The notes: generated from the letters alone by a model not told the origin. A DNA stretch of 64,000 nucleotides from Candidatus Woesebacteria bacterium RIFCSPHIGHO2_01_FULL_39_32 (GCA_001792345.1 MGGJ01000004.1:74090-138089); one strand, 5' to 3'. Numbered from the stretch's first letter, positions 29,079 through 55,139 are shown. Translations and numbers: made by a program.

Positions 29079-29088
29079 TAAGTTAAAA

Positions 29089-30781: not shown

Positions 30782-30831
30782 TTAAAGTTACCTATGAATC
30801 AATTATTGAGACATAAAGTTGAATTCTAATT

Positions 30832-30868
30832 ATTCGTAGCCATTCGTAGCATTCGTACACATTCGCAG
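30832..30868 (+). repeat. Four tandem ~9-10-bp direct repeats (ATTCGTAGC / CATTCGTAGC / ATTCGTACAC / ATTCGCAG) 10 bp upstream of GT2 start
   Basis: Seen directly; candidate transcription-factor binding iteron. Confidence 0.5.
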
Positions 30869-30877
30869 ATTAGTATT

Positions 30878-32371
30878 ATGATAAGAAAATTTGTTCTTAA
30901 ACACGAAAGGTTTTTTTACAGGCTTTTGGAAATATTGCCGGGATTTTTTTCCTGGAACGTAATACTTTTTCCCTACTGGGGTATTTTTGTTATTCCTAAT
31001 GCGGTTGCTTACTTTATTCTTTCTTACAACATTTACTGGTTTTACCAATCTTTTCAAATTGCAGTAACAGGAATAATCGCTCATTTCAGAGTCCAGGCAT
31101 CAATGAATTTTGACTGGCTAGGAGATCTGAAAAACTTTCCCGATTGGGAGAAAGTAAATCATATGGTGATTATTCCAACTTACAAAGAACCGCAATATAT
31201 TTTGGAAAGAACGATTGATTCGCTATTGGCACAAACTCTTCCGAAAAAACAATTAAGCGTAGTTATTGCCCAAGAGGATAGAGCACCCTTTGAGGATAAA
31301 GTTACAAAAATGAAAAATCTTCAAGATAAATATGGAAAACAATTTGGTAACTTTCTCGTCACTCTTCACAAACTGGCTGCCGGAGAAGTTATAGGTAAAG
31401 CATCAAATGAAAGAGATGCTGCAATTTGCTCAAAGAAAGAGCTTGTTGATAAGAAGGGAATGAATATATATTACTTAACCGTAACCAGCTGTGACGCTGA
31501 TCATGTATTTCACCGAAATCATTTTGCTTCTTTAACTTTCAAATTCTTAGATGATCCCCAAAGATATCTTAAATTCTGGCAACCGGCAGTACTTTTTTAT
31601 AATAATATATGGAGAGTTCCCGCTCTCATTCGCGTCCCAAATATTCTGGGATCTGTATTTGCTCTCTCACAACTTCCGCGGCGCGACAGGCTTATTAGTA
31701 CTTCTAATTACTCTTTGTCGCTAAAACTACTCCACGAAATAGACTATTGGGATGCTGACAAAATTCCCGAAGATTGGGGAATATTTTTCAAGGCTTATTA
31801 TAAAAAACAAGGACAGGTCGAAGTTGAGCCCAATTATTTACCTGTTTATGCCGATGCACCAGAATCCACGAGCTTTCGTAAAACCTTAAAAAACATGTAT
31901 GACCAGAGAAAAAGATGGGCCTGGGGAGTTTCGGATGACCCGTGGATTATAAAGAATTATTTTTTTACACCAGGGGTTCCTTTTTTACAAAAGACTTTAC
32001 GGGTGCTTTATGTTATTCAATCTCATTTTTTGTGGCCAGTTCACTGGTTTGCAATTACAATTGGTCTTCAACTGCCTGCATTACTTAATCCAAGGTTTGC
32101 AAGAACGGCTCTTGGACATACAGTTCCCAGACTTTCATCGATAATCCTTACCGTTGCACTTGTGTTTCTTTTAGTTATGCTTGTTCTAGACAAAATATAT
32201 AGGCCTAAAAAACCGGAGGGGTTTCCTGCCTGGAAAGTTCTTTTGGGTCCATTGGAGTTTGTACTCATGCCCGTTGTCGGATTTTTCTTTTCTGCACTTC
32301 CCGGCATCGATGCGCATACAAGGTTGATGCTTGGTAAATATATAGAATACAAGGTCACCGAGAAAGTATAA
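30878..32371 (+). CDS. Membrane-integrated GT2 glycosyltransferase (processive beta-glycan synthase-like)
   Basis: 497 aa; N- and C-terminal TM helices, DAD (SCDADH) and QxxRW (QRKRWAWG) motifs. Confidence 0.8.
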   Translation: MIRKFVLKHERFFYRLLEILPGFFSWNVILFPYWGIFVIPNAVAYFILSYNIYWFYQSFQIAVTGIIAHFRVQASMNFDWLGDLKNFPDWEKVNHMVIIPTYKEPQYILERTIDSLLAQTLPKKQLSVVIAQEDRAPFEDKVTKMKNLQDKYGKQFGNFLVTLHKLAAGEVIGKASNERDAAICSKKELVDKKGMNIYYLTVTSCDADHVFHRNHFASLTFKFLDDPQRYLKFWQPAVLFYNNIWRVPALIRVPNILGSVFALSQLPRRDRLISTSNYSLSLKLLHEIDYWDADKIPEDWGIFFKAYYKKQGQVEVEPNYLPVYADAPESTSFRKTLKNMYDQRKRWAWGVSDDPWIIKNYFFTPGVPFLQKTLRVLYVIQSHFLWPVHWFAITIGLQLPALLNPRFARTALGHTVPRLSSIILTVALVFLLVMLVLDKIYRPKKPEGFPAWKVLLGPLEFVLMPVVGFFFSALPGIDAHTRLMLGKYIEYKVTEKV

Positions 32372-39770: not shown

Positions 39771-39926
39771 TTAGCCTCCCCTTTTCTTCATCTCAATAAT
39801 AAGTTTTTCTGGAATCGGTCTGCAGGTGCAATACTTAGCATGTTCCTGATGCCATTTAATCCTTTGCTCTAAACTCGGGTTTTTGGGCATCCTATTTGCT
39901 CTGTGCCATTTTTCGTTAATGTTCAT
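39771..39926 (-). CDS. Unannotated 51-aa ORF translationally coupled (ATGA overlap) to the SDR gene
   Basis: MNINEKWHRANRMPKNPSLEQRIKWHQEHAKYCTCRPIPEKLIIEMKKRGG; His/Cys-containing, basic; not in ORF track (<60 aa). Confidence 0.3.
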   Translation of the reverse strand: MNINEKWHRANRMPKNPSLEQRIKWHQEHAKYCTCRPIPEKLIIEMKKRGG

Positions 39927-41696: not shown

Positions 41697-41711
41697 TTAA
41701 TTTAAGAACCC

Positions 41712-41728
41712 GCGGAGGAAATGGTTTC
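41712..41728 (+). repeat. Repeat A copy 1 (GCGGAGGAAATGGTTTC)
   Basis: Between convergent genes 40725..41696 and 41729..42097. Confidence 0.85.
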
Positions 41729-42097
41729 CTATTTAGAGCTTTTTATTTGACGAACTTTATCGACCAAAAGGCCCACAAAGAAAAGCAATATGAGTGTGGC
41801 TGCATAACTAATAAGTACTACCCAAAATAAATTCTTAGAATGTGTAGCCCATGAATAATAACTCTCGGGAACTATAAAACTTAGGAAATCTACTAACAGT
41901 TTCCCTGGAATAGACAGCAAAATAATAATAGCTAGAGATATTGGAGCACAGATTACAAATATTCCACCGCTGCACTCATTAAGTAGCGGAACCAACATCG
42001 TTGCAAAACCTAAAAGAATCAAAATAATATATATCACAGGTAAACGATACCTGTACTTTAGTCCAAAAAATTTCTTAAAGAATTTCTTAATCTCCAT
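41729..42097 (-). CDS. Hypothetical 4-TM membrane protein
   Basis: 122 aa hydrophobic ORF. Confidence 0.4.
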   Translation of the reverse strand: MEIKKFFKKFFGLKYRYRLPVIYIILILLGFATMLVPLLNECSGGIFVICAPISLAIIILLSIPGKLLVDFLSFIVPESYYSWATHSKNLFWVVLISYAATLILLFFVGLLVDKVRQIKSSK

Positions 42098-42153
42098 ATA
42101 TAAGTAATATTATCACCATGTCTTGTCGAAAATGAAGGAAAACCTAGAAACTG

Positions 42154-42173
42154 TGGAATAAATGGTTTCTTAA
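42154..42173 (+). repeat. Repeat A copy 2 (degenerate: TGGAATAAATGGTTTCTTAA)
   Basis: Overlaps stop codon of RelE-like gene. Confidence 0.6.
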
Positions 42174-42434
42174 TCAATATACTTCATCATGACTCCCGAT
42201 TCTGTTAAAAAGAATCCTATTTTCTTCGATTGTAAAAATAATTCTAATATCGCTTGTTATTGAAATAGACCAGTTATTTTCCCCGGACAACTTATGAAGC
42301 CGTAACGATGGGTGTTTAGGATTGGTTGATAGAAGTTCAATTTGATGTCTAAGCTTAATTTTTAATTTAGGATTATTCTTGACTATTTTCTTTAAATTCC
42401 TATCAAAAGTTCTTGAGAAATAAACTTCGTACAT
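42174..42434 (-). CDS. Type II toxin, RelE/ParE superfamily
   Basis: 86 aa; ...LHKLSGENNWSISITSDIRIIFTIEENRILFNRIGSHDEVY matches RelE/ParE C-terminal consensus. Confidence 0.7.
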   Translation of the reverse strand: MYEVYFSRTFDRNLKKIVKNNPKLKIKLRHQIELLSTNPKHPSLRLHKLSGENNWSISITSDIRIIFTIEENRILFNRIGSHDEVY

Positions 42435-42465
42435 CTACTAAAATTATATAATAAATTACTCTACC

Positions 42466-42699
42466 CTAAATTGAGTCGAAGTATTTTTTTATATCCTTTT
42501 TTGTCTTTAGTGTAATAGCTTTTCCTTCTTTTATTTCTTTCCTGGTTTCCTCTGCCCACAAATCGTATTTACTTTGAGATATAACCTTTCTCAAGGAATC
42601 ACGGACAAGGTCGCTAAAAGAAGCATAAAAGCCTCCTCTTACAAGGGTTTCAGCTTGATTTTTCAATTTTTCGGGTAAAGATACATTTATTGTAACCAT
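42466..42699 (-). CDS. Ribbon-helix-helix antitoxin, ParD/CopG-like
   Basis: MVTINVSLPEKLKNQAETLVRGGFYASFSDLVRDSLRKV matches ParD family; start set at internal Met of ORF 42466..42714; 31 bp upstream of toxin gene. Confidence 0.65.
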   Translation of the reverse strand: MVTINVSLPEKLKNQAETLVRGGFYASFSDLVRDSLRKVISQSKYDLWAEETRKEIKEGKAITLKTKKDIKKYFDSI

Positions 42700-42753
42700 A
42701 CAACAATAATACAATCTTCGTACAATAAGTCAATATATAAAATTACTTAAGTT

Positions 42754-42773
42754 GCGGAGGAAATGGGTTTCTA
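42754..42773 (+). repeat. Repeat A copy 3 (GCGGAGGAAATGGGTTTCTA)
   Basis: Overlaps stop of peptidase gene; one-base insertion. Confidence 0.8.
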
Positions 42774-43394
42774 ATTGTTGTTAAACAAACCTTCAAAATT
42801 AAAATCTACAAACTTTTTATTTCTCTCGTCATACAATTTCGTTTCATTCTCTTTAAGCTTTAAAATATTAAGTCCCTTTTGCTCTGCAAATTTTTCGACT
42901 ATTTCTATTAACTCTTCATTACAATAATTAGAGTTATTAGTGTGGACAATCACTATAGTTTCACTGTCAGGAAATATACCTTCAATAAAGTCGATGGTCT
43001 TTCTGTCGCTTGTTTCATAAAAATATGGAGCCATAAGCATTGCACCGGCACTGTCACCAAGAATAACTATATCTTTCTTAAGAACACCGAAATCAAATCT
43101 TTTCCTTTGAAGGCCATCTTTTAAAGGAATAGTATCACCGCCGCAAAGAAAAATAAGATCGTAAATTCGCCAATTAATATCTTTAGTTTTATTCCCAACA
43201 ATATCTACTGTTTCTCCAAATTGAGGAATTATATGCTTATCGTAATAATGATTAGGCTTAGCCATTGTTACAAAACAGGTCTTTTTCCCTTTGGCAATTA
43301 GTTTCTTGATCGTTTTGGAGTATTCGTAGAGATAAGATTTTTCAAAACCATTAGGTTCATTTTTATTTAGCCCACCCCGAAATATAAGTTTCAT
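42771..43394 (-). CDS. Peptidase S51-like (dipeptidase E / cyanophycinase family)
   Basis: 207 aa; IFLCGGDT...IVILGDSAGAML matches S51 nucleophile-Ser region. Confidence 0.55.
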   Translation of the reverse strand: MKLIFRGGLNKNEPNGFEKSYLYEYSKTIKKLIAKGKKTCFVTMAKPNHYYDKHIIPQFGETVDIVGNKTKDINWRIYDLIFLCGGDTIPLKDGLQRKRFDFGVLKKDIVILGDSAGAMLMAPYFYETSDRKTIDFIEGIFPDSETIVIVHTNNSNYCNEELIEIVEKFAEQKGLNILKLKENETKLYDERNKKFVDFNFEGLFNNN

Positions 43395-43432
43395 AATCGT
43401 AGTATATCAATTTGGAGAATTTTCCAGAAGCC

Positions 43433-43449
43433 GCGGAGGAGATTGTTTC
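43433..43449 (+). repeat. Repeat A copy 4 (GCGGAGGAGATTGTTTC)
   Basis: In divergent intergenic region. Confidence 0.7.
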
Positions 43450-43481
43450 GGATTATCCTTATCAAGTGTTAAAATCGAAAT

Positions 43482-43751
43482 ATGGATAAATTACATAAAC
43501 TGGAGGAAAAAATAGAGAAAATTGAATCCAGAAATAGAAAGGTCGAAAACGATAAAGCTTGGGAAACAAGTTATGCAAGAAGGTTCTTACTATTCTTTTT
43601 TACTTATGTGTCAATCGGTCTTTATCTCAATGTAATTCAAATCAAAGACCCATGGCTTAATGCAATAGTTCCATCAATAGGATTCTTCCTTTCGACTCTC
43701 ACTCTCCCCTTCTTCAAATCTACTTGGCTAAAGAAAAGAAATAAAAGATAA
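43482..43751 (+). CDS. Small 2-TM membrane protein with N-terminal coiled-coil (paralog 1)
   Basis: 89 aa; ~80% aa identity to 52260..52532. Confidence 0.5.
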   Translation: MDKLHKLEEKIEKIESRNRKVENDKAWETSYARRFLLFFFTYVSIGLYLNVIQIKDPWLNAIVPSIGFFLSTLTLPFFKSTWLKKRNKR

Positions 43752-43759
43752 CTTTGGCC

Positions 43760-43776
43760 GCGGAGGAAATGGTTTC
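43760..43776 (+). repeat. Repeat A copy 5 (GCGGAGGAAATGGTTTC)
   Basis: 9 bp after stop of paralog 1. Confidence 0.85.
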
Positions 43777-43797
43777 GGTTTCTTATATACTAAGTTA

Positions 43798-44082
43798 ATG
43801 AATAAATATTTGCGTTATTTATTTGTCCTGATATTTATTTTCTCTCTCTATCACTTTTTGAGAGATTTACTACAGACATTTAGCGTCGATAATTTCTTTA
43901 TAAACATTCTTCACAGACCCCACATCTGGTGTAGTCCGTATTGCAATTATGTAACCTATCCCCTGGACACGCTTGGAATTGTAGGCAGTTTTATCGTGTT
44001 AAGAAGAAACCGCGTGGGAATTCTGGGTGTGCTTATTTTTATATCCTTACCTCTTTGGTCGCTTGCTGTATTATTACCTTAG
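43798..44082 (+). CDS. Small 3-TM membrane protein
   Basis: 94 aa hydrophobic ORF. Confidence 0.4.
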   Translation: MNKYLRYLFVLIFIFSLYHFLRDLLQTFSVDNFFINILHRPHIWCSPYCNYVTYPLDTLGIVGSFIVLRRNRVGILGVLIFISLPLWSLAVLLP

Positions 44083-44098
44083 AAAATTTTTTTAACCA

Positions 44099-44115
44099 GC
44101 GGAGAAAATGGTTTC
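44099..44115 (+). repeat. Repeat A copy 6 (GCGGAGAAAATGGTTTC)
   Basis: 17 bp after preceding stop; followed by TATAAT 13 nt before next ATG. Confidence 0.75.
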
Positions 44116-44155
44116 TTCTTTATAATTATATTTAAAATGCTTATAATATTTGTAA

Positions 44156-44710
44156 ATGTTTCAAGAAAATTCGGCCGAACGTCGTCCTAAATTTTCCGCA
44201 TCTGTAGGTGTTATTCCTTTATATGAAAGTCCAGATGGATCAAAAGGTGTGGTTTTGGGCTTAAGAATTGAGGATGGCTTATGGACTCCTATAGCGGGCG
44301 GTCTCGAAAATCAGGAGTATGACTTGGAAGCTTTATGCAGAGAATGGCAAGAAGAAACAGGATTAAATCCAGAAGAATCTCTACAATTATTTCCCATTCC
44401 ACTTACAACAACTTCGCCGCAGCCAGGAAAAACTTCTGTCGGCATAACATATATCGGAAAATATACTGGCCCAGCGTTACCTTTAAGAGCTTGGGGCGAT
44501 GAAATAGAAGTACTTGAATCATTCGCGCCAGAAAGATTAAAAAATCTATTAGACAATCCTGAAGGCCACCTTTTTCGTCCTGACTTAAATTTAGGTAACT
44601 TAACAGCGATCCTGACTCTTTTATCACCAAATGACGGGGTGCAAACAATATTATTGAATAGAGCACGACAATCCACCCAAAGATTCATTAAAGAGGATAC
44701 ATATTTCTAA
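44156..44710 (+). CDS. NUDIX-family hydrolase (divergent)
   Basis: 184 aa; GGLENQEYDLEALCREWQEETGL Nudix-box-like. Confidence 0.55.
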   Translation: MFQENSAERRPKFSASVGVIPLYESPDGSKGVVLGLRIEDGLWTPIAGGLENQEYDLEALCREWQEETGLNPEESLQLFPIPLTTTSPQPGKTSVGITYIGKYTGPALPLRAWGDEIEVLESFAPERLKNLLDNPEGHLFRPDLNLGNLTAILTLLSPNDGVQTILLNRARQSTQRFIKEDTYF

Positions 44711-44715
44711 AAACC

Positions 44716-44732
44716 GCGAAGGAAATGGTTTC
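44716..44732 (+). repeat. Repeat A copy 7 (GCGAAGGAAATGGTTTC)
   Basis: 6 bp after NUDIX stop; followed 19 bp later by repeat B copy 1. Confidence 0.8.
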
Positions 44733-44751
44733 TTAAGATTTTTTATTCGAA

Positions 44752-44770
44752 GCTAATTTGAAGACAAATT
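44752..44770 (+). repeat. Repeat B copy 1 (GCTAATTTGAAGACAAATT)
   Basis: Just 3' of minus-strand nitrilase gene. Confidence 0.85.
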
Positions 44771-44772
44771 AT

Positions 44773-45552
44773 TTATTTTATTTCTAGTTTCTTTTTTGGC
44801 TGCCACCAGGAATCAAACTCTCGAGCCTTTGTAACCTCATCCAAATCCAACTCTTCATAAAGAATCTCTTTGTGATTAATGCTCCCTTCCTTTAAAACCC
44901 CTCTTATAGGACTTACAATCAATGACCTTCCGAAAGAGTTTGTCGCTATATTTAAATTACCCGATACTAAAATAAAAGACCTGCTCGCAAAAGCACCATA
45001 TACATATAGCGCTTTTACATACTCTTGAGTGTTCAATTCCTTCCAGCCAATCGACCATGTAGGAATACAAATAATTTCGGCGCCTTGATTGTTAAATTTC
45101 TCATATAAAAAATGTGAGAACTTGTTGAAGCCATCCTTGCAAATAAGCATCCCTAATTTTCCTATTTCTGTTTTTTCGACCTCTAAAGTATTCCCGGCAA
45201 CAACTCCAATGTTTTCTATTTCAGGTTTTGCTGGGTAAATTTTTCTGTGCGATACAACGGATTTTCCTTCAGGAGAAATAATATAGCCTTGGTTATAATA
45301 CTTGCCGTCTTTTTTAGTGTAAAAACTTGTCGCGAGAAAAACACTGTGTTTCTTTGCAACTTCTATGAGTTTCGGCAAATAATCTATTTCTTTTTCCTTC
45401 AACTCCCCAACTTCTCCGACGGCAGTTTCTGGAGCAACTATTAATTTTGCACCTGCCCACGAAGCCTGTGAAACCATTTCGTTAAGTTTCTTAAAGGAAG
45501 CACTAGATTCTTCGGGAGCGTCGTATTGTAGAACTGCAACTTTAACTTTCAT
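44773..45552 (-). CDS. Carbon-nitrogen hydrolase (nitrilase superfamily)
   Basis: 259 aa; E (APET), K (HRKIY), C (LICKDG) catalytic triad spacing. Confidence 0.8.
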   Translation of the reverse strand: MKVKVAVLQYDAPEESSASFKKLNEMVSQASWAGAKLIVAPETAVGEVGELKEKEIDYLPKLIEVAKKHSVFLATSFYTKKDGKYYNQGYIISPEGKSVVSHRKIYPAKPEIENIGVVAGNTLEVEKTEIGKLGMLICKDGFNKFSHFLYEKFNNQGAEIICIPTWSIGWKELNTQEYVKALYVYGAFASRSFILVSGNLNIATNSFGRSLIVSPIRGVLKEGSINHKEILYEELDLDEVTKAREFDSWWQPKKKLEIK

Positions 45553-45572
45553 TAACCAAATTCTACTCCGGA

Positions 45573-45591
45573 GCTAATTTGAAGACAAATT
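45573..45591 (+). repeat. Repeat B copy 2
   Basis: 20 bp upstream of nitrilase start. Confidence 0.85.
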
Positions 45592-45595
45592 TATC

Positions 45596-45904
45596 CTAAG
45601 CTGACTGAATTTCAAACTTAGTTTTTTTAGGATCGAAGGCTTTAATATTTTTCTTTACGTCCAATATTTCAATCCCTAAAATTTTACCCTTAGCATCTTC
45701 GTCCACTAAAACAGTATCCGTTACTTTTCTGGTTCGGCTATATTTTCCTTTTGCTAATTCCAAATAAACTGCGTCTTCTTTTTTATCGTATTGTATTTTC
45801 ATAATTATTTTTTCAGGATTATCAATTGTTTCTGTTACAGTCTTTTGAGAAATATTTCTCCTTTTAAGTTGCTTTATGGCATGTCCAGAAAAGTTGACGG
45901 GCAT
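45596..45904 (-). CDS. Fused DUF4258-like (short N-terminal) / DUF2283-like (C-terminal) small protein; TA-related
   Basis: 102 aa; C-terminal MKIQYDKKEDAVYLELAKG...KILGIEIL matches DUF2283; N-terminal FSGHAIKQLKRRNIS resembles DUF4258. Confidence 0.5.
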   Translation of the reverse strand: MPVNFSGHAIKQLKRRNISQKTVTETIDNPEKIIMKIQYDKKEDAVYLELAKGKYSRTRKVTDTVLVDEDAKGKILGIEILDVKKNIKAFDPKKTKFEIQSA

Positions 45905-45926
45905 AAAAACATTATAAAATAATCTC

Positions 45927-45949
45927 GGAGTTAATTTGAAAACAAACTT
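45927..45949 (+). repeat. Repeat B copy 3 (degenerate)
   Basis: GGAGTTAATTTGAAAACAAACTT, 3 mismatches. Confidence 0.6.
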
Positions 45950-45967
45950 TAAACATCGTATTTGAAA

Positions 45968-46552
45968 TTAGTAACCCCAGGCCTTCCTCTTCCCTGCTTT
46001 CATAATATTCCACGAACCATCCTGTTGGCGCATCATTACATAATAAGACGGTCTTTTAAAGCTCGAGTGTTCTTCATCACCAAGTCTAATTTCTAATAAC
46101 TTTGGTACATATGGCTCCGGAACTTTACCTAATATATCTGTTGAAATTGCTTTAACTTCCTTCGCTCTAAGAAAATCCGTGGAGATATTATAGTCAAGCT
46201 TCTCAACCACACCTTTTGAATCAAACCATAACTGTGCGCCAGTTAACTCATACTCACTTTCCCTCTCTAATAATACTGCTGCTGCCTTCGAATCGTCCAA
46301 CTCCCCCAATCCAAAGTAACCCTTTTGTTCGATTAAGACATCTGCGTGTGTTCCCTTTGGAAATAGTCCAGAAGCTACTTTATCTTTAGAAATTCGAGCA
46401 AGACAAGAAATATAACCCGGAAACTTACCAATGACAGCGCCTCGACCTTCACGAATTAATCCTTGCCACTCACCTTCAGTTAATAAACGGTTATAAAAAG
46501 GTCTGGGGGCAACATCTATTCCCGCTTGGATTTCCTCTGAATCTAAAACCAT
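45968..46552 (-). CDS. Hypothetical protein (194 aa)
   Basis: ORF only. Confidence 0.45.
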   Translation of the reverse strand: MVLDSEEIQAGIDVAPRPFYNRLLTEGEWQGLIREGRGAVIGKFPGYISCLARISKDKVASGLFPKGTHADVLIEQKGYFGLGELDDSKAAAVLLERESEYELTGAQLWFDSKGVVEKLDYNISTDFLRAKEVKAISTDILGKVPEPYVPKLLEIRLGDEEHSSFKRPSYYVMMRQQDGSWNIMKAGKRKAWGY

Positions 46553-46578
46553 TTCAACCTTATTATACCTCTCTAGAA

Positions 46579-46597
46579 GCTAATTTGAAGACAAATT
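46579..46597 (+). repeat. Repeat B copy 4
   Basis: 27 bp upstream of start of 45968..46552. Confidence 0.85.
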
Positions 46598-46675
46598 ATT
46601 TTAGTTTTGTCATAATAATACATAAGGTGTTACTTTATTTTGAGCTAAAATCCAATACCTGTGTTAAATTAACAT

Positions 46676-47287
46676 ATGTTTTTATTGAAGAAGTATTATT
46701 GGGAAGTCAAAGAAACAAAAAGTAAAGGAAGGGGTGTTTTCGCAAGGAAACCAATTTCGGCAGGCACACTTATTGGCGATTACGTTGGAAAATTGGTTCA
46801 CTTGAAAGATGTAGATTTTGATAAAGAAAAAGGAAATCTGTATCTGATGTATTACAATGACACAACAGGTATTTACCCCAGCTTAAGAAAACCGGGCATT
46901 CATCTTCTAAATCATTCGTGTTCTCCTAATTGCTGGATTTTTAAATTTAAAAGACACACTTTGGTTTTTGCATTAAAGAATATTATGAATGGAGACGAGT
47001 TGACAATTTCTTACCTCCTTCCTCCAGGTAAGCTTTGTACGAACTGCACACATAAATGCTTCTGCGAAAGCAAGGTTTGTACAAAATCGATGCATTTAAC
47101 GGAAGGTGGATATAAAAAATGGCAGGATTTTCAAGATAAAGAAGAAAGGAAAGGAAAATATAGAAAAATTATAAATGAAAACGCATTAAAACTGTTGGCA
47201 AAATATCCGAAATCTATTTCCAAAAGTTATATTGTAAAAATTAAAAATTTAGAGATTACACAAAACCTTTCCATCTCGCTAATTTGA
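46676..47287 (+). CDS. SET-domain protein (lysine methyltransferase-like)
   Basis: 203 aa; LLNHSCSPNC SET signature and post-SET Cys cluster; its TGA stop lies inside repeat B copy 5. Confidence 0.75.
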   Translation: MFLLKKYYWEVKETKSKGRGVFARKPISAGTLIGDYVGKLVHLKDVDFDKEKGNLYLMYYNDTTGIYPSLRKPGIHLLNHSCSPNCWIFKFKRHTLVFALKNIMNGDELTISYLLPPGKLCTNCTHKCFCESKVCTKSMHLTEGGYKKWQDFQDKEERKGKYRKIINENALKLLAKYPKSISKSYIVKIKNLEITQNLSISLI

Positions 47288-47296
47288 AGACAAATT
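47278..47296 (+). repeat. Repeat B copy 5
   Basis: Overlaps stop codon of SET gene. Confidence 0.85.
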
Positions 47297-47308
47297 TATT
47301 TTGTTAAA

Positions 47309-48160
47309 CTAAACAGCAAGAATCACCAGTCCCAACATTAACAAAAATATACCGATTTTCTGCTCTTTTGCTAACTTTTCCTTCAGAAAAAGTAGCGCCA
47401 AGAATATTGTCACAACAGGCGCCGCAGCAACAACTGGCGCAACGATAGATGCATAAGTACTATTTACACCCAAAGAGTAACCAAGATAACCCATACTACT
47501 TAGTATTCCCAAAAGTGCAGCTAGTTTATAAGAATAATTAGTAATAGATAAACTTTTTTCTTTATATAAAGTAAGTATAGTTAAAAACAACACACCCGAG
47601 ATGGTTGTGAGAATAATTATCTCTAACCAACCAATTTTAACGGTCATATCACCTATTAAGATAAATGACGTACCCCAAAAGAACATTGCTAACAGACCAT
47701 ATGGAACTGATCTATCAGTGATTACTAGCTTAAGATTTTTGAAATTTTTTAAATTTATTGAAACCAATATAGTCCCGACAACAACAAGTACAACAGAACC
47801 AACTTGAATTGGCAAAAGAATTTCAGAAAGAAATAATATTGAAAAAAGAATTATTATCACCGAATAAGAAGAAGCTATCGGAGACAAAACCGATAGATTA
47901 CCAACTTGCGTCCCTTTGAAAAAAGAAAGACCCCCTAAAGTAGTTATTATTCCCGCAATAAAACCTACGACAAACTCTCCGGTACTTATTTCAAAAAGGT
48001 TTGTTGTTCGACCGGAAACAAACGAAATACATAAAAGGTAGAAAAGCATGAAGATGGCATTCCACAACATTCCTTTTAAGAATCCTGCAGATTTAGAAAG
48101 AAATACTATAACATAATCGGCGACTCCAAAACCCACAAGTCCTATCAATGCATAAACCAT
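47309..48160 (-). CDS. EamA/DMT-superfamily transporter
   Basis: 283 aa, 10 TM, duplicated EamA-like halves. Confidence 0.7.
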   Translation of the reverse strand: MVYALIGLVGFGVADYVIVFLSKSAGFLKGMLWNAIFMLFYLLCISFVSGRTTNLFEISTGEFVVGFIAGIITTLGGLSFFKGTQVGNLSVLSPIASSYSVIIILFSILFLSEILLPIQVGSVVLVVVGTILVSINLKNFKNLKLVITDRSVPYGLLAMFFWGTSFILIGDMTVKIGWLEIIILTTISGVLFLTILTLYKEKSLSITNYSYKLAALLGILSSMGYLGYSLGVNSTYASIVAPVVAAAPVVTIFLALLFLKEKLAKEQKIGIFLLMLGLVILAV

Positions 48161-48179
48161 ATATTAATATTACCCCGAA

Positions 48180-48198
48180 GCTAATTTGAAGACAAATT
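48180..48198 (+). repeat. Repeat B copy 6
   Basis: 19 bp upstream of start of 47309..48160. Confidence 0.85.
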
Positions 48199-48246
48199 AT
48201 TAACAGACTGTTCTTACTAACAATTAAATATTGATATAATCAAATC

Positions 48247-49110
48247 ATGTCGGGAGTAATAGCAGCAATTTATTCCTCATTTTTTCTCGCATTATCTCAA
48301 GCTTCTTTGAAAAAAAGCTACAGGGAACTTTCTCCATCTGTTGCATTTTTCTTTGACACCCTTTTTGGTTTAGCTCTTTGGGTACCTCTAGCATTATTCT
48401 TCGGCATCAATCTGATATTCTTCAAAGAGGTCCTTTTATTTGCAGTTCTATCAGCAGTTTTATCCGAAGCATTATATTTTTATGCGCTATCTAAAGGACA
48501 GTTAAGCGTAACCACAATTCTTATTGGTAGCTACCCGATTTATACTATTTTGTTTTCTTATTTGATCAATAGAGAGATATTAACTCCGTTACAAGCATTA
48601 TTTATCGGAATAACAATCTTCGGAACACTAATTTCATACCTGCCTTCAAAATTAAACAAAGATGAATTGAAAAAAAGCGGCGTTCTGATATGGCCAATAA
48701 TAGCGGCGGTTGCAGTTGGTTTATCTGATACCTTGTCCAAGAAAATTATAAACAAAACTGAAGATTTTACGTTTCTTTTTGCACTAGCCCTAGTCCAAAT
48801 ACCGGTTTCGCTGACATACCTAAAACTTGAAAGGCAAAATATTATAAAAGAGCTAAAAGTAGTAAAAGCAAAAGCATATGATTATAAAAATGCAATAGCC
48901 GGATCACTGTTTAATATTATCGGCACTGGGCTTCTGTGGATCGCCTTTTCAAAGACTCTTGCTTCGATTGCTTCTCCGATAACTGCTACAAGCGGGGTTT
49001 TGGTAATTATAATTGCACTACTTTTTCTTGACGAGAAAATATCATTAAAACAAATAGCCGGAATATTTTTAGTCATTCTGGGTATAATTGGAATTGCGAT
49101 TCTAGTTTAA
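48247..49110 (+). CDS. EamA/DMT-superfamily transporter
   Basis: 287 aa, 10 TM. Confidence 0.7.
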   Translation: MSGVIAAIYSSFFLALSQASLKKSYRELSPSVAFFFDTLFGLALWVPLALFFGINLIFFKEVLLFAVLSAVLSEALYFYALSKGQLSVTTILIGSYPIYTILFSYLINREILTPLQALFIGITIFGTLISYLPSKLNKDELKKSGVLIWPIIAAVAVGLSDTLSKKIINKTEDFTFLFALALVQIPVSLTYLKLERQNIIKELKVVKAKAYDYKNAIAGSLFNIIGTGLLWIAFSKTLASIASPITATSGVLVIIIALLFLDEKISLKQIAGIFLVILGIIGIAILV

Positions 49111-49113
49111 AAT

Positions 49114-49584
49114 ATGCAGAAAAATCAAATTGTTTCATATTCAGGAATAGAGGGTCTACTTAAAGTAACCCAAAATTCTCTCAGCGCAGAAGGAGAGCTT
49201 CTAATTTTTGAAACTAGTTATGCATCACTAAACGACATGTTTACTAAAGATCAGGCGGAAGAAATCAGAAATGAATTTGTAAACAAGAAAATTAAAATTA
49301 GAGAGCTGACAAATCATGCTTATCACGAAACATACACTCATGTTAGGGATTTTCATGAAAAAGTAATGAATATTCGTTACATAAACCCAAACAGGCTTCA
49401 AATTAAAGTAGAAACGCTTATATATAATAATGTCGTGGCATTATACGAGCCCAAAAAAGACGGTTTCTGCCTTGAAATTTACAGCAAAGAGTTGGCCGAT
49501 CAACAAAGACAACTATTTGAATTTATTTGGAAACAAGCAGATAGACCAATAATCGGTAAGGGTGGTAGGACTTCTATTTTCTAG
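49114..49584 (+). CDS. Hypothetical protein (156 aa)
   Basis: 3 nt after transporter stop, likely co-transcribed. Confidence 0.45.
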   Translation: MQKNQIVSYSGIEGLLKVTQNSLSAEGELLIFETSYASLNDMFTKDQAEEIRNEFVNKKIKIRELTNHAYHETYTHVRDFHEKVMNIRYINPNRLQIKVETLIYNNVVALYEPKKDGFCLEIYSKELADQQRQLFEFIWKQADRPIIGKGGRTSIF

Positions 49585-49586
49585 GA

Positions 49587-49605
49587 GCTAATTTGAAGAC
49601 AAATT
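49587..49605 (+). repeat. Repeat B copy 7
   Basis: Starts 2 nt after stop of 49114..49584. Confidence 0.85.
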
Positions 49606-49610
49606 ACCGA

Positions 49611-49985
49611 TTATAGGTAGTAAGCTACCTCTATCTTTATTCTGTCAGGATCTTCGAAATATACTGCATAGTACCCCTCTTCATATTCAGGAAAGGGTTT
49701 TGGTGTGTCGTATAAAGTAGGAATTTTATTAGGTTTAAGAAATTCGTTACAGAATTTATCAACATCTTCCTTGGAGTTTACCCTGAATGCTATATGGTTT
49801 AATCCAACTCTTTTTCTGTGGAAACCTTTAATAACGTATTTTCCCTCTGCCTGATCAAACCAGATGGTCGTTCCCCCATTCATAAAGGCAAATACCTTCT
49901 TCTCATTAACAATTTCCTTATAGTCTAAAAGGGTAAGGAGTTTGTTATAGAAATTATAAGATTTGTTTAAATCTGAAACGTACAA
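49611..49985 (-). CDS. VOC-family protein (glyoxalase/bleomycin-resistance/dioxygenase fold)
   Basis: 124 aa; GLNHIAFRV and paired betaalphabetabetabeta modules; TTG start in ORF track. Confidence 0.65.
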   Translation of the reverse strand: MYVSDLNKSYNFYNKLLTLLDYKEIVNEKKVFAFMNGGTTIWFDQAEGKYVIKGFHRKRVGLNHIAFRVNSKEDVDKFCNEFLKPNKIPTLYDTPKPFPEYEEGYYAVYFEDPDRIKIEVAYYL

Positions 49986-50031
49986 GTTGATATGTCCGAC
50001 TGTAGATTTTATAAAACTATTTTATCCCAGA

Positions 50032-50050
50032 GCTAATTCGAAGACAAATT
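50032..50050 (+). repeat. Repeat B copy 8 (GCTAATTCGAAGACAAATT)
   Basis: 1 mismatch. Confidence 0.75.
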
Positions 50051-50159
50051 GTTTCAGATTTTTGACACTGGTTAATTTTATCTATTCTCCTCAACCCCTA
50101 CCAGTCTTGGTTTCTTCACTTTCTCGTTTGAAATCTTATTGATGTCTCTGACATTTAGA

Positions 50160-50813
50160 CTACCTAGAAAGTCTTTCTAATAAACCATATTCAACATACC
50201 AAGGAAAAACTCCATCCTCAGGATAAATAAATTCGTGAGGACCAATCTCCATGGAAGGTTTTTTAAAAGAACGTACGCCTCGCGGCTCTCTTAATTGGTA
50301 CCCTGTTAATTGCCGTACGACTTCTATTTCTTCATCGGATAACCCAAGTGTTATGGTTTGCCTATCAAACTCTCTTGAAGAGTGTCTAATTGTGAGAGGA
50401 CTTCCGCGCAAATTAATAACTGTGCGTTTGTCATTTACTGTAATTCTATAACAATATTCAAGCACTGCCCTGAGCCGCGATTGCATAGGCTGAGCGTATT
50501 CTTCGGCTTTAACAATATCTTCAGTATTCACCACATGTACGCCATCGATGTCGCTTCCATTATTTGCTTCACCGTGCGCTATTGAACCATACACAAACAT
50601 GCCTCTATATTCCGGATTTATAGACATTTCTTCTAATACTAAACTTCCTAAGATACTTCTGACCGAATGTTGATCTTGCAAATCAAGAGCATCTGGGAGT
50701 TCTACATGAGTTAAAAATGATACATCAGGAATACGTATTTTATCCGGATATACAAAAAGTGGTTTTTCTGGAAGTATTCGTTTTTCTTGTCCTGATTCTT
50801 CGTCACCAACCAT
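50160..50813 (-). CDS. Nucleotidyltransferase-fold protein (minimal NTase, ANT/Lnu-like)
   Basis: 217 aa; YGSIAHGEANNGSDIDGVHVV fits hG[GS]x9-13DhD NTase motif. Confidence 0.5.
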   Translation of the reverse strand: MVGDEESGQEKRILPEKPLFVYPDKIRIPDVSFLTHVELPDALDLQDQHSVRSILGSLVLEEMSINPEYRGMFVYGSIAHGEANNGSDIDGVHVVNTEDIVKAEEYAQPMQSRLRAVLEYCYRITVNDKRTVINLRGSPLTIRHSSREFDRQTITLGLSDEEIEVVRQLTGYQLREPRGVRSFKKPSMEIGPHEFIYPEDGVFPWYVEYGLLERLSR

Positions 50814-50877
50814 ATTAATAAATCCAAAAGTAAAGATACATTAACGGAATTATACCAGCTTAGAATACTTAGAGAAA

Positions 50878-51363
50878 TTACCTTAGGGGAATTGAGAACC
50901 AGCGGGGAACTTTTTTCATATAGCCTGAATATTCTTTACCAAACTTCTTTTTTAGTTCGGGCTCTTCTTTGTAAATGATAACCAATTGAAAGAGGACAAC
51001 TGCAGCAAGAACATAAAAGAGAAGTAGTATGTGACCGAAAATCATAAAAACTCCTAAAAATGCCAGCAAGACGGCGGCGTACATGGGATTGCGACTATAT
51101 CCATAAAAGCCTTTGGAAATAAGTTTTTTTGGCGATTCGATAATAACTGGTGTGACTCTACCTGTTAATAAATGCTGGTGCATCGTATATAAAGTTGCCG
51201 AAAAACCAAAAAGAAAGAAAATAAATCCTAGGGTTCTTAGCAGACTGTTATCAAAAACTGGTAAATTGTAAATGACGTTGAGCCGAATTAAATATACAGG
51301 AACAACAAACCAAGCAAAGACCAAAATAAAAAGTCCGAGAAGTAATGTCAACGCACTTTTCAT
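50878..51363 (-). CDS. Isoprenylcysteine carboxyl methyltransferase (ICMT)/phospholipid methyltransferase family membrane protein
   Basis: 161 aa; GFYGYSRNPMYAAVLL motif, 4 TM. Confidence 0.7.
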   Translation of the reverse strand: MKSALTLLLGLFILVFAWFVVPVYLIRLNVIYNLPVFDNSLLRTLGFIFFLFGFSATLYTMHQHLLTGRVTPVIIESPKKLISKGFYGYSRNPMYAAVLLAFLGVFMIFGHILLLFYVLAAVVLFQLVIIYKEEPELKKKFGKEYSGYMKKVPRWFSIPLR

Positions 51364-51381
51364 TATAGTTATTATATCAAT

Positions 51382-52155
51382 TTAATTCCGCCTTTTGTGG
51401 AAGGATTTCTGATGTGCAAGGAACTTTTGAGCTTCAACCGATACTCTTTTCTTCTCCCTGTAATTAGATTTTTCAACAAAACGGTTAAATAATTTAAGTA
51501 CTTTTTCAAATCTCAGCTCTGCAATTTTAAGTCTTGAGAAATTATAGACAATGTAATCTCTGTACATATTTTTATCGGCCAAATTTATAAGTGGATGTTT
51601 TCTTCTTACTATCCTTATCATCGCGACCTCAACGTGTGGGTTTGGAATAAAGTCGTGTCGTCGAAAATTCCAAAAAATATCAATTTCAAACCATGGTTTT
51701 AATAATACCGATACCATTGAGTTCTTGTTGTCAAAAGGCATTCCAATAAATCTTCTTGCCGCTTCTTTTTGGATCACTATATAAGCTTCTAAAAAATTAT
51801 CATCGTCGGTTAATTTTCTTAAAACGCCGGAGGTTATATTGAAAGGAATGTTTGAAAAAACTTTGTAGGAGTAAGGCGGCATCCTGAAATTTAGAAAATC
51901 ACCTCGAATTAGTTCTAAGTTCTTTGCATTTTTATATTTTTCTTTTAGGTGAAAGTAAAGTTTTCTATCAAGTTCAATCGCGGTAACTCTTCCGGCAACT
52001 TTCAACAATTCTTGGGTAATAATTCCTCTACCGGGACCGATTTCGATAACTTTGTCATTTTTACCAAGAGAAGATTTCCGAATTAATTTAGCGATAAGCT
52101 TCGGATTGACAAGATTGTTCTGTGAGTAGAGCCTCCGCCTTTGTTTGTACAACAT
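51382..52155 (-). CDS. rRNA adenine N6-dimethyltransferase family (Erm/KsgA)
   Basis: 257 aa; YSQN..., VIEIGPGRG SAM motif, NIPFNITS motif IV; size and N-terminus more Erm-like than KsgA-like. Confidence 0.75.
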   Translation of the reverse strand: MLYKQRRRLYSQNNLVNPKLIAKLIRKSSLGKNDKVIEIGPGRGIITQELLKVAGRVTAIELDRKLYFHLKEKYKNAKNLELIRGDFLNFRMPPYSYKVFSNIPFNITSGVLRKLTDDDNFLEAYIVIQKEAARRFIGMPFDNKNSMVSVLLKPWFEIDIFWNFRRHDFIPNPHVEVAMIRIVRRKHPLINLADKNMYRDYIVYNFSRLKIAELRFEKVLKLFNRFVEKSNYREKKRVSVEAQKFLAHQKSFHKRRN

Positions 52156-52259
52156 AGCGGAGTCTCCTTATAATTATGGTTACCATATATTTTTCCTTCT
52201 AAAGCTAATCAGCTTTGTGTGTATTTTATCTCAAAGCCTTCTTGAAGTAAAATATAAAC

Positions 52260-52532
52260 ATGGATAAACTTCAAAAACTGGAGGAAAAAATTAGTAAAAT
52301 TGAAGCTAGGAACAGAAAAGTTGAAGCAGATAAATCTTGGGAGACGAGCTACACAAGAAGAGTTCTGCTTTTTGTTTTTACGTACATCTCAATTGGGCTT
52401 TATCTAAATGTGATTCAGGTTGAAAACCCTTGGCTTAATGCAATTGTTCCCTCAATCGGATTTTTGCTTTCAACTCTTACTCTTCCCTTCTTCAAAAACC
52501 TCTGGATGAAAAAACGAAACGGAAAAATTTAG
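52260..52532 (+). CDS. Small 2-TM membrane protein (paralog 2 of 43482..43751)
   Basis: 90 aa, ~80% identical to paralog 1. Confidence 0.5.
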   Translation: MDKLQKLEEKISKIEARNRKVEADKSWETSYTRRVLLFVFTYISIGLYLNVIQVENPWLNAIVPSIGFLLSTLTLPFFKNLWMKKRNGKI

Positions 52533-52537
52533 AGGCA

Positions 52538-52554
52538 GTAGAGGAAATGGTTTC
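52538..52554 (+). repeat. Repeat A copy 8 (GTAGAGGAAATGGTTTC)
   Basis: 6 bp after stop of paralog 2. Confidence 0.75.
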
Positions 52555-52635
52555 TTAATCCCCGTCTTAATTAATCTTGACAAACTTGTTAATAACATCT
52601 ACTGTTTTAATAGAACACTCATTTATTTCAAAAAT

Positions 52636-53526
52636 ATGGCCAAAAAGGCTAAGTCTGCAAACTTCTTTAACAAAATAATTGTTCTGGCATTGGCAGTAAT
52701 ATCCTTAGCTTTGATAACCGTTGCGACAACACAAAAACAAACCAATTACGACATAAGAACAGGGGCTACTTACAATCCAAAAATTGACCCCGATGATTTT
52801 ACTACAAACATAACAAATAAATACTTTACGCTTCCTGTCGGGAAAAAAATGGTTTATGAGGGCGATACCGAGGAGGGACGCGAAAGAATAGAAATAACAA
52901 TTCCAGGCGATAAGAAGAAAATTATGGGAGTTGAGACCCTTTTGTATCGCGACAAGGCCTGGCTCGACTCAAACGGAGACGGGAAATGGAGTAAGAAGGA
53001 GATGATTGAGGACACGCGAGATTATCTAGCCCAAAACAAGAAAACGGGTGATGTTTGGTATTTCGGCGAGGAAGTAAATAACTATGAGGATGGAGAACTT
53101 ATTGACCACGACGGTTCCTGGCTGGCGGGAGATGATAGATACCCAGGCGCATTACCTGGCATTTGGGTTAAGCAAAATCCAAAAGTAGGAGAGGTATACT
53201 TGCAGGAATTTTATAAGGGAAAAGCGGAAGATACGGTCAAAGTTTTATCAACGCATGCAACAGTAAAAACCTCGCTTGGCAAATTTAAAGACTGTTTGAG
53301 AACAAAGGACTTCACTCCGTTAGAACCCGATGCTCTGGAAAACAAATACTACTGTCCCAACGCAGTGATTAAAAATATCGGCTCAACTGTACTTATAAAA
53401 GATTTAGCAAATGATGAACAGCTGGAACTTTCTAAATTAACTGTTGGAAAAACTGACGATGACAAAGATGATGAAGACGATGACAAAGATAATGACCGTG
53501 ATGGCGATGAGGAAGAAGATGATTAG
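52636..53526 (+). CDS. Secreted protein with poly-acidic (D/E-rich) C-terminal tail
   Basis: 296 aa; N-terminal signal anchor; C-terminus DDDKDDEDDDKDNDRDGDEEEDD. Confidence 0.5.
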   Translation: MAKKAKSANFFNKIIVLALAVISLALITVATTQKQTNYDIRTGATYNPKIDPDDFTTNITNKYFTLPVGKKMVYEGDTEEGRERIEITIPGDKKKIMGVETLLYRDKAWLDSNGDGKWSKKEMIEDTRDYLAQNKKTGDVWYFGEEVNNYEDGELIDHDGSWLAGDDRYPGALPGIWVKQNPKVGEVYLQEFYKGKAEDTVKVLSTHATVKTSLGKFKDCLRTKDFTPLEPDALENKYYCPNAVIKNIGSTVLIKDLANDEQLELSKLTVGKTDDDKDDEDDDKDNDRDGDEEEDD

Positions 53527-53528
53527 GA

Positions 53529-53547
53529 GCTAATTTGAAGACAAATT
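53529..53547 (+). repeat. Repeat B copy 9
   Basis: Begins 3 nt after stop of 52636..53526. Confidence 0.85.
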
Positions 53548-53551
53548 ATTT

Positions 53552-53860
53552 TTAAATAAGCTTACTACGATGGGTTAGAATATTTCCCCATGTCATCATT
53601 TTTTCAGCCCAATCAATGGAATCTTTCGGTCCCTCTAGTCCTTCGCTTTCAAGTTGTTTATAGTGTCTGAGAAAATCTTTCAAAGTATCTTTAAAGGGAG
53701 TTCTAAATGAACTTGAATCAAGAGTTTCAATGTAATTACTCGTATTCGAAATAAAAGTTTGTATCCTTTTTCTCTTACCTAAGTAATCATCGGCTGCCCA
53801 ATTACCAATCCTGTTTAAATTCATCGCAATATCTAAAATTTTTTGTTTATTACCTGTCAT
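53552..53860 (-). CDS. Hypothetical small protein (102 aa), downstream member of overlapping gene pair
   Basis: 4-nt overlap with upstream gene. Confidence 0.4.
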   Translation of the reverse strand: MTGNKQKILDIAMNLNRIGNWAADDYLGKRKRIQTFISNTSNYIETLDSSSFRTPFKDTLKDFLRHYKQLESEGLEGPKDSIDWAEKMMTWGNILTHRSKLI

Positions 53861-54180
53861 AAAAGTAAGCTTCTGACAATCTTATCAAACCTTTTTCTAA
53901 TTTGTTTTGACATTATATCGCGGCTTGGATTATCTTGATTGGGACGCAAATTAATCATGGAGTTGTAATCAATTTCTTTCGTTTCCAAGTCCAATCCTCC
54001 ACCCCATAGATTAATTTTGTGTGAACCATCGTCCAGAAGTTCTTTTTCTTCATCAACGTGTCTATCTTCTCCCGCAGATATCATTTCGCGCTCAATGTCA
54101 ACGACAATCTTAATATATCCTTTAAAGTGTTCCGCAATTTTATTCAACTCGGACCCATTGGCCTTTCTTCTAATAATCAT
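53857..54180 (-). CDS. Hypothetical small protein (107 aa), upstream member of overlapping pair (possible TA module)
   Basis: ORF, overlap architecture. Confidence 0.4.
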   Translation of the reverse strand: MIIRRKANGSELNKIAEHFKGYIKIVVDIEREMISAGEDRHVDEEKELLDDGSHKINLWGGGLDLETKEIDYNSMINLRPNQDNPSRDIMSKQIRKRFDKIVRSLLL

Positions 54181-54212
54181 ACCTGGCTCATTTTACCACG
54201 ATTTTAAGCAAA

Positions 54213-54231
54213 GCTAATTTGAAGACAAATT
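54213..54231 (+). repeat. Repeat B copy 10
   Basis: 33 bp upstream of start of 53857..54180. Confidence 0.85.
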
Positions 54232-54245
54232 ATTTTCCCAGGTCT

Positions 54246-55106: not shown

Positions 55107-55139
55107 AGTTTAAGCTATTTGTAGTTTACCACCAGAAGC

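Follow-up and report, generated by a model that had tools for sequence, protein, structure and literature searches.

In integrons and clusters of attC sites lacking integron-integrases (CALINs), small accessory genes and toxin-antitoxin pairs follow one another in a string, with a recombination-associated repeat at each boundary; attC sites are ~55-140 nt long and fold as an imperfect hairpin made of an R box, an unpaired spacer, an L box and a variable tip, and integron cassettes are mostly promoterless and co-oriented. A complete integron, as opposed to a CALIN, also has an IntI tyrosine recombinase next to the array. The pdif modules of Acinetobacter plasmids often carry toxin-antitoxin or resistance genes between ~28-nt Xer sites in inverted orientation with an 11-6-11 XerC/XerD layout, while repetitive extragenic palindromic sequences (REPs) and bacterial interspersed mosaic elements (BIMEs) are short intergenic repeats that combine a conserved tetranucleotide with a palindrome, often near gene 3' ends. 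The promoter-early stem-loops (PeSLs) of T4-type phages (PMC2839356, PMC4122927), composites of a sigma-70-like promoter and a stable stem-loop terminator, lie between small accessory genes in hyperplastic regions, where recombination within the motif takes place and mini-circles are formed (PMC2839356). Here we describe two short repeats, A and B, in a 64,000-nt stretch of the uncultured groundwater organism Candidatus Woesebacteria bacterium RIFCSPHIGHO2_01_FULL_39_32 (GCA_001792345.1 MGGJ01000004.1:74090-138089; the window), which we regard, at a probability of roughly 55%, as the joints between mobile gene units (cassettes) arrayed on the chromosome. The arrays formed by A and B are modular and cassette-based, like those of integrons and PeSL regions, but they belong to neither class, because defining features of both were looked for and are absent. 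In full-text literature searches, neither integron-like arrays nor attC sites were found described for Woesebacteria, Patescibacteria or the Candidate Phyla Radiation (CPR).

Two repeat families in one array

Repeat A is present as eight copies of a 15-nt core, GGAGGAAATGGTTTC, all on the plus strand (up to two mismatches, 64-kb window), including one degenerate copy and one with a 1-nt insertion (Table 1). An initial annotation of this DNA had listed eight copies, all of which were recovered, with positions agreeing to within 2 nt, and the match count was reached in 0 of 100 dinucleotide-preserving shuffles. The 22-mer form of A reads CCGCGGAGGAAATGGTTTCTTA, with starts including 41710, 43758, 44097, 44714 and 52536. 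Repeat B, with the core GCTAATTTGAAGACAAAT, occurs ten times from 44752 to 54230, again only on the plus strand, in agreement with the annotated division of the region into a left part with A and a right part with B. The two families were said to meet at about 44716-44770, and the cores of A7 (44718-44732) and B1 (44752-44769) are indeed adjacent. A profile search found no additional copy of either repeat in the window, the other 51 kb of which has none.

The clustered repeats span ~12.5 kb, where nearly all intergenic gaps are occupied by A or B regardless of gene strand; four genes at 50050-52535 stand without a clear junction repeat. Repeats separate open reading frames (ORFs) at distances of 38-2504 nt from start to start, a spacing of the kind by which integrons and CALINs are recognized (at least two sites in one orientation, <4 kb apart). 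The sites themselves are 22-30 nt long and lie inside intergenic gaps of 21-90 nt, and the units they delimit measure 0.3-1.4 kb. Fourteen of the 22 array genes are on the minus strand. A had been annotated as lying at gene 3' ends, and this holds for seven of its eight copies, which have a stop codon 0-18 nt away; it fails for A4, which lies between two divergent gene starts.

The array includes a toxin-antitoxin unit with a ParE/YafQ toxin and an RHH antitoxin together, and further genes encode a peptidase S51, NUDIX, a CN-hydrolase, a DUF4258/DUF2283 protein, a SET-domain protein, two EamA transporters, a glyoxalase, a nucleotidyltransferase, a PEMT/ICMT protein, an Erm/KsgA-like rRNA methyltransferase and DUF5674. 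Across the window and the other loci described below, array genes comprise ParE/RHH, HigB/HTH, BrnT/BrnA, PIN-like, NUDIX, GNAT, glyoxalase, AHSA1, HIT and EamA families and methyltransferases, a content that is typical of integron cassettes.

Some remnants of repeats may be seen in and beyond the array. The gap ahead of the second 89-aa gene (52156-52259) contains AAAGCTAATCAGCTTTGTG and TCAAAGCCTTCTTGAAGTAAAAT, which resemble decayed B copies, and the gap at 55107-55139 ends in ACCACCAGAAGC directly ahead of the stop codon of a minus-strand gene, resembling the left half of A (CCAGAAGCC) without its right half. Cassette-like genes at 54.2-58.8 kb (EamA, ICMT, YdeI/OmdA, DUF7436) have no intact repeats.

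Table 1. Junction repeats, array and associated features of the window, in positions counted from its first nucleotide.
Feature	Coordinates	Strand	Core start	Placement and remarks
Conserved flank: methionyl-tRNA synthetase and family-2 glycosyltransferase	29342..32371	+		same pair upstream of array in five other Woesebacteria genomes
Cassette array, 18 junction repeats (A1-A7, B1-B8, A8, B9, B10)	41710..54230	+		separates ~22 small accessory genes
A1, short form (CCGCGGAGGAAATGGTTTCCTA)	41710..41731	+	41714	between stop of plus-strand gene 40725-41696 and abutting stop of minus-strand gene 41729-42097
A2, degenerate (ACTGTGGAATAAATGGTTTCTTA region)	42151..42172	+	42155	4 nt left of stop of minus-strand gene 42174-42434
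A3, 1-nt insertion (GTTGCGGAGGAAATGGGTTTCTA)	42752..42774	+	42756	abuts (0 nt) stop of minus-strand gene 42771-43394
A4 (CCGCGGAGGAGATTGTTTCGGA)	43431..43452	+	43435	between divergent gene starts; full left half AGAAGCCGCG retained
Duplicated unit, copy 1 (89-aa membrane-protein gene and A5)	43470..43779	+		similarity to copy 2 from ~10 nt before ATG to A core
A5	43758..43779	+	43762	10 nt past stop of 89-aa gene 43482-43751
A6	44097..44118	+	44101	18 nt past stop of gene 43798-44082
A7	44714..44735	+	44718	7 nt past stop of NUDIX gene 44156-44710; with B1 forms 'empty' A-B joint
B1 core (GCTAATTTGAAGACAAAT)	44752..44769	+		3 nt left of stop of minus-strand gene 44773-45552
B2 core	45573..45590	+		reverse strand TTGTCT-17 nt-TAGAAT-7 nt-ATG into gene 44773-45552
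B3 core, 3 mismatches	45930..45947	+		
B4 core	46579..46596	+		
B5 core	47278..47295	+		overlaps stop of SET gene 46676-47287
B6 core	48180..48197	+		reverse strand TTGTCT-17 nt-TAATAT into gene 47309-48160
B7 core	49587..49604	+		between two converging gene ends
B8 core, 1 mismatch	50032..50049	+		
Duplicated unit, copy 2 (89-aa membrane-protein gene and A8)	52248..52557	+		76% DNA identity to copy 1
A8	52536..52557	+	52540	7 nt past stop of second 89-aa gene copy (52260-52532)
B9 core	53529..53546	+		between two converging gene ends
B10 core	54213..54230	+		final repeat of array

Probable exchange of units at the repeats

An all-against-all DNA comparison of array loci (designated by L numbers) revealed the same units in different genomes with changed neighbours and order, and the ends of the similarity blocks fall on the repeats far more often than expected, with 38 of 115 lying at most 25 nt from a repeat vs ~3.5 by chance (maximum 11 in 1000 trials). 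Two comparisons place the crossover within the core itself. Locus L019 reads BrnA-B-[DUF5615/DUF433]-B-NUDIX where L024 reads BrnA-B-NUDIX, so that the two differ by exactly one unit and one repeat, with the crossover within GCTAATTTGAAGACAAA. From one B core rightwards, contigs L176 and L177, which encode an identical SET protein, share 12.1 kb at 99.7% identity, while to the left of this core the gene sets are entirely different and the flanking glycosyltransferase gene is only 76% identical; the breakpoint from 99.7% identity to unrelated sequence lies exactly on the B core. The place of the array on the chromosome is shared, downstream of the methionyl-tRNA synthetase (MetRS) and glycosyltransferase genes in the window, L019/L176, L177, L025, L178 and L182, and its content differs each time.

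A further difference was seen in L174, which comes from the population of the window. At its positions 1850-2040 (window ~48160-48180), a different sequence and a run of N stand beside B6 and replace the 5' end of the EamA gene, which may reflect variation within the population at a B joint or an artefact of scaffolding.

The same repeats in other genomes

The exact B 18-mer was scanned against one genome per species (596 Gb searched), yielding 27 loci. Eighteen are multi-copy and come from ~12 Woesebacteria/Patescibacteria genomes, one of which has arrays on three contigs; the remaining nine are single matches in unrelated phyla, about the chance level for an 18-mer in 596 Gb. Genes shared among the ~12 species-level genomes that carry the exact 18-mer are only 70-85% identical at the DNA level, and conservation of the core thus far exceeds that of its surroundings. 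The B core had no match in IMG/VR. Metagenome and viral scans with the A core gave 142 loci, of which four are real arrays and the rest almost all single chance matches, because GGAGGAAATG resembles an ordinary ribosome site and start codon.

Most loci with the B 18-mer hold A as well, and A copies precede B copies in nearly all of the 28 loci compared. Those loci contain 150 copies, and within every locus the orientation is single (150/150). An 'empty' A-B joint like that at 44714-44769 recurs in seven locus entries, which include near-duplicates. This polarity is uniform and independent of the genes: with the repeats set as plus, 140 array genes are on the minus and 51 on the plus strand (51/191, 27% inverted), and the strands of the left and right neighbours of a repeat are minus-minus in 69 cases, plus-minus in 28, minus-plus in 22 and plus-plus in 6. 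A and B therefore mark boundaries, being present in all four gene contexts, and do not serve genes of one direction. Gene ends abut the repeats (median 0 nt) and gene starts keep a median distance of 32 nt (p = 9e-20), and where a minus-strand gene lies on the right its stop codon commonly overlaps the right edge of the repeat, as the TTA that ends A or B. The location of the repeats at gene 3' ends follows from their being unit joints, since gene ends abut the joint and each gene start is separated from it by the gene's own promoter.

Several metagenome-assembled genomes (MAGs) from SRP050083 labelled 'uncultured Gammaproteobacteria' contain Woesebacteria-type arrays (L003, L008, L015, L019, L020 and L026; CAYTOP01, CAZVJU01, CAYSZS01). 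These MAGs have 35-40% G+C and genes in common with Woesebacteria, and the Gammaproteobacteria label is probably wrong.

Repeat anatomy and folding

The A copies of the window are short forms, in which AGAAGCCGCG is joined straight to GAGGAAATGGKTTC. Long forms of A in other genomes carry 19 nt (CTTGCCCGCCTCTGGTGGG and variants) or 51 nt of extra sequence between the two halves, and the inner hairpin of this insert shows compensating changes (CCCGCC/GGCGGG, CCCACC/GGTGGG, CCTGC/GCAGG, CGACC/GGTCG). Repeat B likewise has a long form, CTAATTTGAAG-GACGTCRAACGTCCCNRG-GACAAAT, found in >10 copies outside the window (examples are L019 5583, L020, L021, L024, L176 9911 and L180 8663) and folding as a two-tier hairpin of -9.4 (plus strand) or -11.1 kcal/mol (minus strand); its insert is a highly conserved palindrome of 18-19 nt (GACGTCRAACGTCC...) between GAAG and ACAAAT, a place equivalent to that of the inserts in A. 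Since the halves of A and B flank an inserted GC-rich hairpin in other genomes, the full site appears to be a hairpin of two tiers, whose base is conserved and whose tip varies. The long forms are 45-85 nt and are predicted to fold in this manner from the ~14 A and 11 B sequences at hand, which show limited covariation, and the evidence for the outer stems is weak. The B palindrome has arms of 6-7 bp around a 4-nt centre. Past the hairpin A and B both read GAGGA-AAAT, and judging from such sequence the two may be of common origin.

Expression signals at the repeats

In most first-in-operon genes of the window, a TAnnnT box ends 5-9 nt ahead of the start codon (e.g., 1267-2001, 12914-14035, 19747-22698 and 29342-30781), most array genes too have a -10 box 5-9 nt before their ATG, and a Shine-Dalgarno-like motif precedes only ~9 of 76 window genes, a layout that suggests leaderless mRNA is the default in this Woesebacteria genome. 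Repeat B has a promoter-like layout of this type on its reverse strand, which reads TAA-TTTGTCTTCAAATTAGC. In 18 of the 41 B copies with a minus-strand gene starting to their left, a TAnnnT box is found at a distance of exactly 7 nt from the core, equivalent to a 17-nt spacer from TTGTCT, vs only one of 19 copies with a plus-strand gene on the left (p = 0.0026). Several other B copies have TATAAT 13-15 nt away, 16-18 nt from TTCAAA, and the ATG follows 6-9 nt past the B-linked -10 box. The B reverse strand thus matches a -35 box (TTGTCT or TTCAAA) of predicted leaderless promoters, which would drive real transcription. The -10 box of these putative promoters is outside the conserved core. A generic promoter scan gave no enrichment over shuffled sequence in this AT-rich DNA (56 vs 47 ± 6 expected), and the promoter claim therefore rests on the fixed-offset test. 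Four B copies of the window (B1, B5, B7 and B9) have no gene to drive, and A keeps no fixed distance to any promoter.

Three cassettes next to B have a leader in common, in which the arms of a perfect 8-bp inverted repeat enclose the -10 box (TCGAAGGA-TTATAA-TCCTTCGA) and give it an operator-like look (L001 ~2080-2140 and 3850-3910; L022 ~3630-3690).

Surroundings of the array

The window is cellular genome DNA with a G+C content of 32-44% in 2-kb windows, and the array is flanked by housekeeping genes encoding GrpE, HrcA, MurJ, UvrD-type helicases, RmuC, MetRS, the family-2 glycosyltransferase and a 1740-aa alpha-2-macroglobulin. The window contains no tRNA or tmRNA gene, and so the array is not a case of tandem integration at a tRNA gene. 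No Rfam family was detected in the window at gathering thresholds, and nothing relevant appeared in seven array loci at E <= 1.

Two genes were considered as clues to mobility and set aside. The 323-aa gene next to A1, considered on account of its size, was rejected as an integrase, as it has no Pfam match and looks like a membrane-anchored glycoside hydrolase. The 89-aa membrane protein of the duplicated unit (43482-43751 and 52260-52532) is 60-70% identical across Woesebacteria, Levybacteria and DPANN archaea (Aenigmarchaeota, Diapherotrites), a cross-domain conservation unusually high for a tiny protein without known family. Its relatives lie between two SRP GTPase genes in an archaeon and after a PMT_2 glycosyltransferase gene in Levybacteria, with no repeats at either place; because the Levybacteria and DPANN relatives occupy repeat-free housekeeping contexts, the family is not cassette-specific and was rejected as a mobile marker.

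Upstream of MetRS, a 52-nt direct repeat (85% identical) occurs at 27736-27787, the end of a Trp-repressor-like gene, and at 29085-29136, just past gene 28530-29078. The 262-nt gap between a Memo-like gene and a short-chain dehydrogenase gene (39661-39922) has no ORF of at least 60 aa, and public gene calls place a 51-aa ORF there (L170 3096-3251).

A model for the arrays and its alternatives

We favour a model in which each unit consists of one gene or gene pair with its own leaderless promoter, situated between direct copies of a 17-30-nt core that all point one way, whatever the direction of the genes. In this model, recombination inside the core removes, inserts, reorders or replaces units, so that the region is hypervariable while its chromosomal position after MetRS and the glycosyltransferase stays fixed. 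A dedicated site-specific recombinase, encoded elsewhere in the genome, would recognize the conserved core, and the long hairpin forms would be the active sites, with the short forms being decayed ones. Tentatively, and with less confidence than we attach to the joints themselves, these parts may amount to a previously undescribed, integron-analogous gene-capture system of Woesebacteria (CPR/Patescibacteria), having two two-tier hairpin site families, a recombinase away from the arrays, leaderless cassettes in either orientation and several arrays per ~1-Mb genome. Self-expression from leaderless promoters would, in such a system, be the reason that cassettes are tolerated in either orientation.

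Several observations weigh against the model of mobile units. The array order of the window is identical in contigs of the same population from many groundwater samples, implying that turnover is slow, and the L176/L177 breakpoint comes from metagenome assemblies, in which a chimeric join at the repeat is conceivable. Pfam scans found no recombinase among the annotated window genes (a few ORFs there lack a family match), none was present in the 20-kb annotated loci around five other arrays, and a tblastn search with IntI1 returned nothing in 409 kb of array loci, although this is a weak test. A homology of 18-30 nt could in principle allow rare recombination without a dedicated enzyme. Finally, single mutations in the 6-7-bp stem of B are uncompensated and the short-form folds (-3.3 to -4.3 kcal/mol) are no better than those of shuffled sequence, which leaves the folding evidence resting on few sequences.

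The main rival, which we think possible but doubtful, is that A and B act as PeSL-like regulatory cassettes composed of a promoter and a stem-loop, kept for expression, with the genes shuffled as a by-product of general homologous recombination between them and without a dedicated recombinase. PeSLs too are conserved composite intergenic motifs between small accessory genes, with promoter elements and with crossovers inside the motif that lead to modular shuffling and mini-circles (PMC2839356); the B reverse strand has its -35 box at the right spacing to a -10 box and then a leaderless start, and no recombinase was found near any array. However, A and B occupy a cellular CPR chromosome with housekeeping flanks and not a phage, B being absent from IMG/VR, and hairpin-insert variants of them exist. 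Their orientation follows the array and is independent of the genes, more than a quarter of which are inverted, B is present where it has no gene to drive, and A has neither a fixed promoter distance nor a fixed promoter part. A -35 box needs 6 nt, yet at least 18 are invariant across species. Moreover, the stem-loop of A and B is weak and AT-rich (-3.3 to -4.1 kcal/mol for B), in contrast to a G4...C4 terminator, and the short-form hairpins are too weak for termination; a terminator scan picked up none of the repeats, and the A hairpin has no U-tract. A canonical cassette array without adjacent integrase (a CALIN), in which A and B would be parts of attC with IntI encoded elsewhere, has a much smaller probability. 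The arrays are like chromosomal integrons in gene content, unit size, uniform polarity and the overlap of stop codons with the site, and likewise in their fixed chromosomal position with variable content among relatives, the precise gain or loss of single units, and long forms predicted to fold as imperfect hairpins with a conserved base and variable tip. Yet the attC core pair R'' (RYYYAAC) and R' (GTTRRRY), 35-130 nt apart, occurs zero times on either strand of 41600-54300, where ~3 would be expected in shuffled sequence, the 22-30-nt sites of the window are shorter than attC, and no IntI-like gene was found in the tblastn search described above. Unlike integron cassettes, the units have their own leaderless promoters and about a quarter of their genes are inverted, and the arrays comprise two ordered site families (A then B) and number several per genome. 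A canonical integron is therefore unlikely, given the lack of core sites, the short sites and the promoters of the cassettes.

Two further readings have very little probability. The initial annotation had pointed to a Shine-Dalgarno-like GGAGG followed by ATG, a mini-ORF and a GAAA-TGG-TTTC hairpin in A, and A would accordingly be an RNA-level element at gene 3' ends, a terminator or processing site with a translated mini-ORF (GGAGG-ATG-GTT-TCT-TAA). The core does hold both GGAGG and ATG, and seven of the eight copies are close to a stop codon. Nevertheless, all copies are on the plus strand although most array genes are on the minus strand, the ATG is only 2 nt past GGAGG, and Shine-Dalgarno use is rare in a genome where the leaderless layout is usual. 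The mini-ORF is not conserved, as copies in other genomes read ATGGGTTCTACTTG, ATGGAATCCAATCT, ACGGGTTCGAAG and ATAGGTTC, and the TTA at its TAA corresponds, in reverse complement, to the stop codon of the right-hand minus-strand gene, directly past the core in many copies. The hairpin fares no better, being weak (-3.5 to -4.3 kcal/mol, z-scores -1.0 to +0.5) and broken in most other genomes, where the core has GGGTTC. Equally improbable is that A and B are small selfish repeats inserting in intergenic DNA, whether REPs moved by a REP-associated tyrosine transposase (RAYT) or elements like miniature inverted-repeat transposable elements (MITEs). They are short and intergenic and have a GGAG-like motif plus a small palindrome, loosely like the GTAG plus palindrome of REPs. 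But REPs are genome-wide, in both orientations, GC-rich and RAYT-linked, whereas A and B are clustered within arrays in one orientation per locus, coincide with unit boundaries common to several genomes, and have no Y1 or other transposase in any annotated locus. Units bounded by pdif sites are also small modules with short sites in differing contexts; A and B differ from them in being all direct repeats, in being chromosomal, and in the 6-7-bp arms and 4-nt centre of the B palindrome. DNA uptake sequences, polar motifs of the Chi or FtsK-orienting polar sequence (KOPS) type, and arrays of dif sites or integrative mobile elements exploiting Xer (IMEX) were rejected, because the repeats are clustered, genomes have several arrays, and no switch in GC skew marks the array.

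Implications for CPR bacteria

CPR bacteria combine tiny genomes with a presumed dependence on host cells, and to our knowledge little is known of how they gain and lose genes. Arrays of the type described here would give them a built-in platform for swapping accessory genes, such as toxin-antitoxin, NUDIX, transporter and methyltransferase genes, at fixed sites. As a simple marker, the exact 18-nt B core can be used to find such arrays in metagenomes, and the B-linked promoters provide testable predictions on leaderless transcription in these bacteria. Should there be a dedicated recombinase, the system would represent a second, independent solution to the integron problem, with shorter sites and self-expressed cassettes, and could serve as a compact recombination tool.

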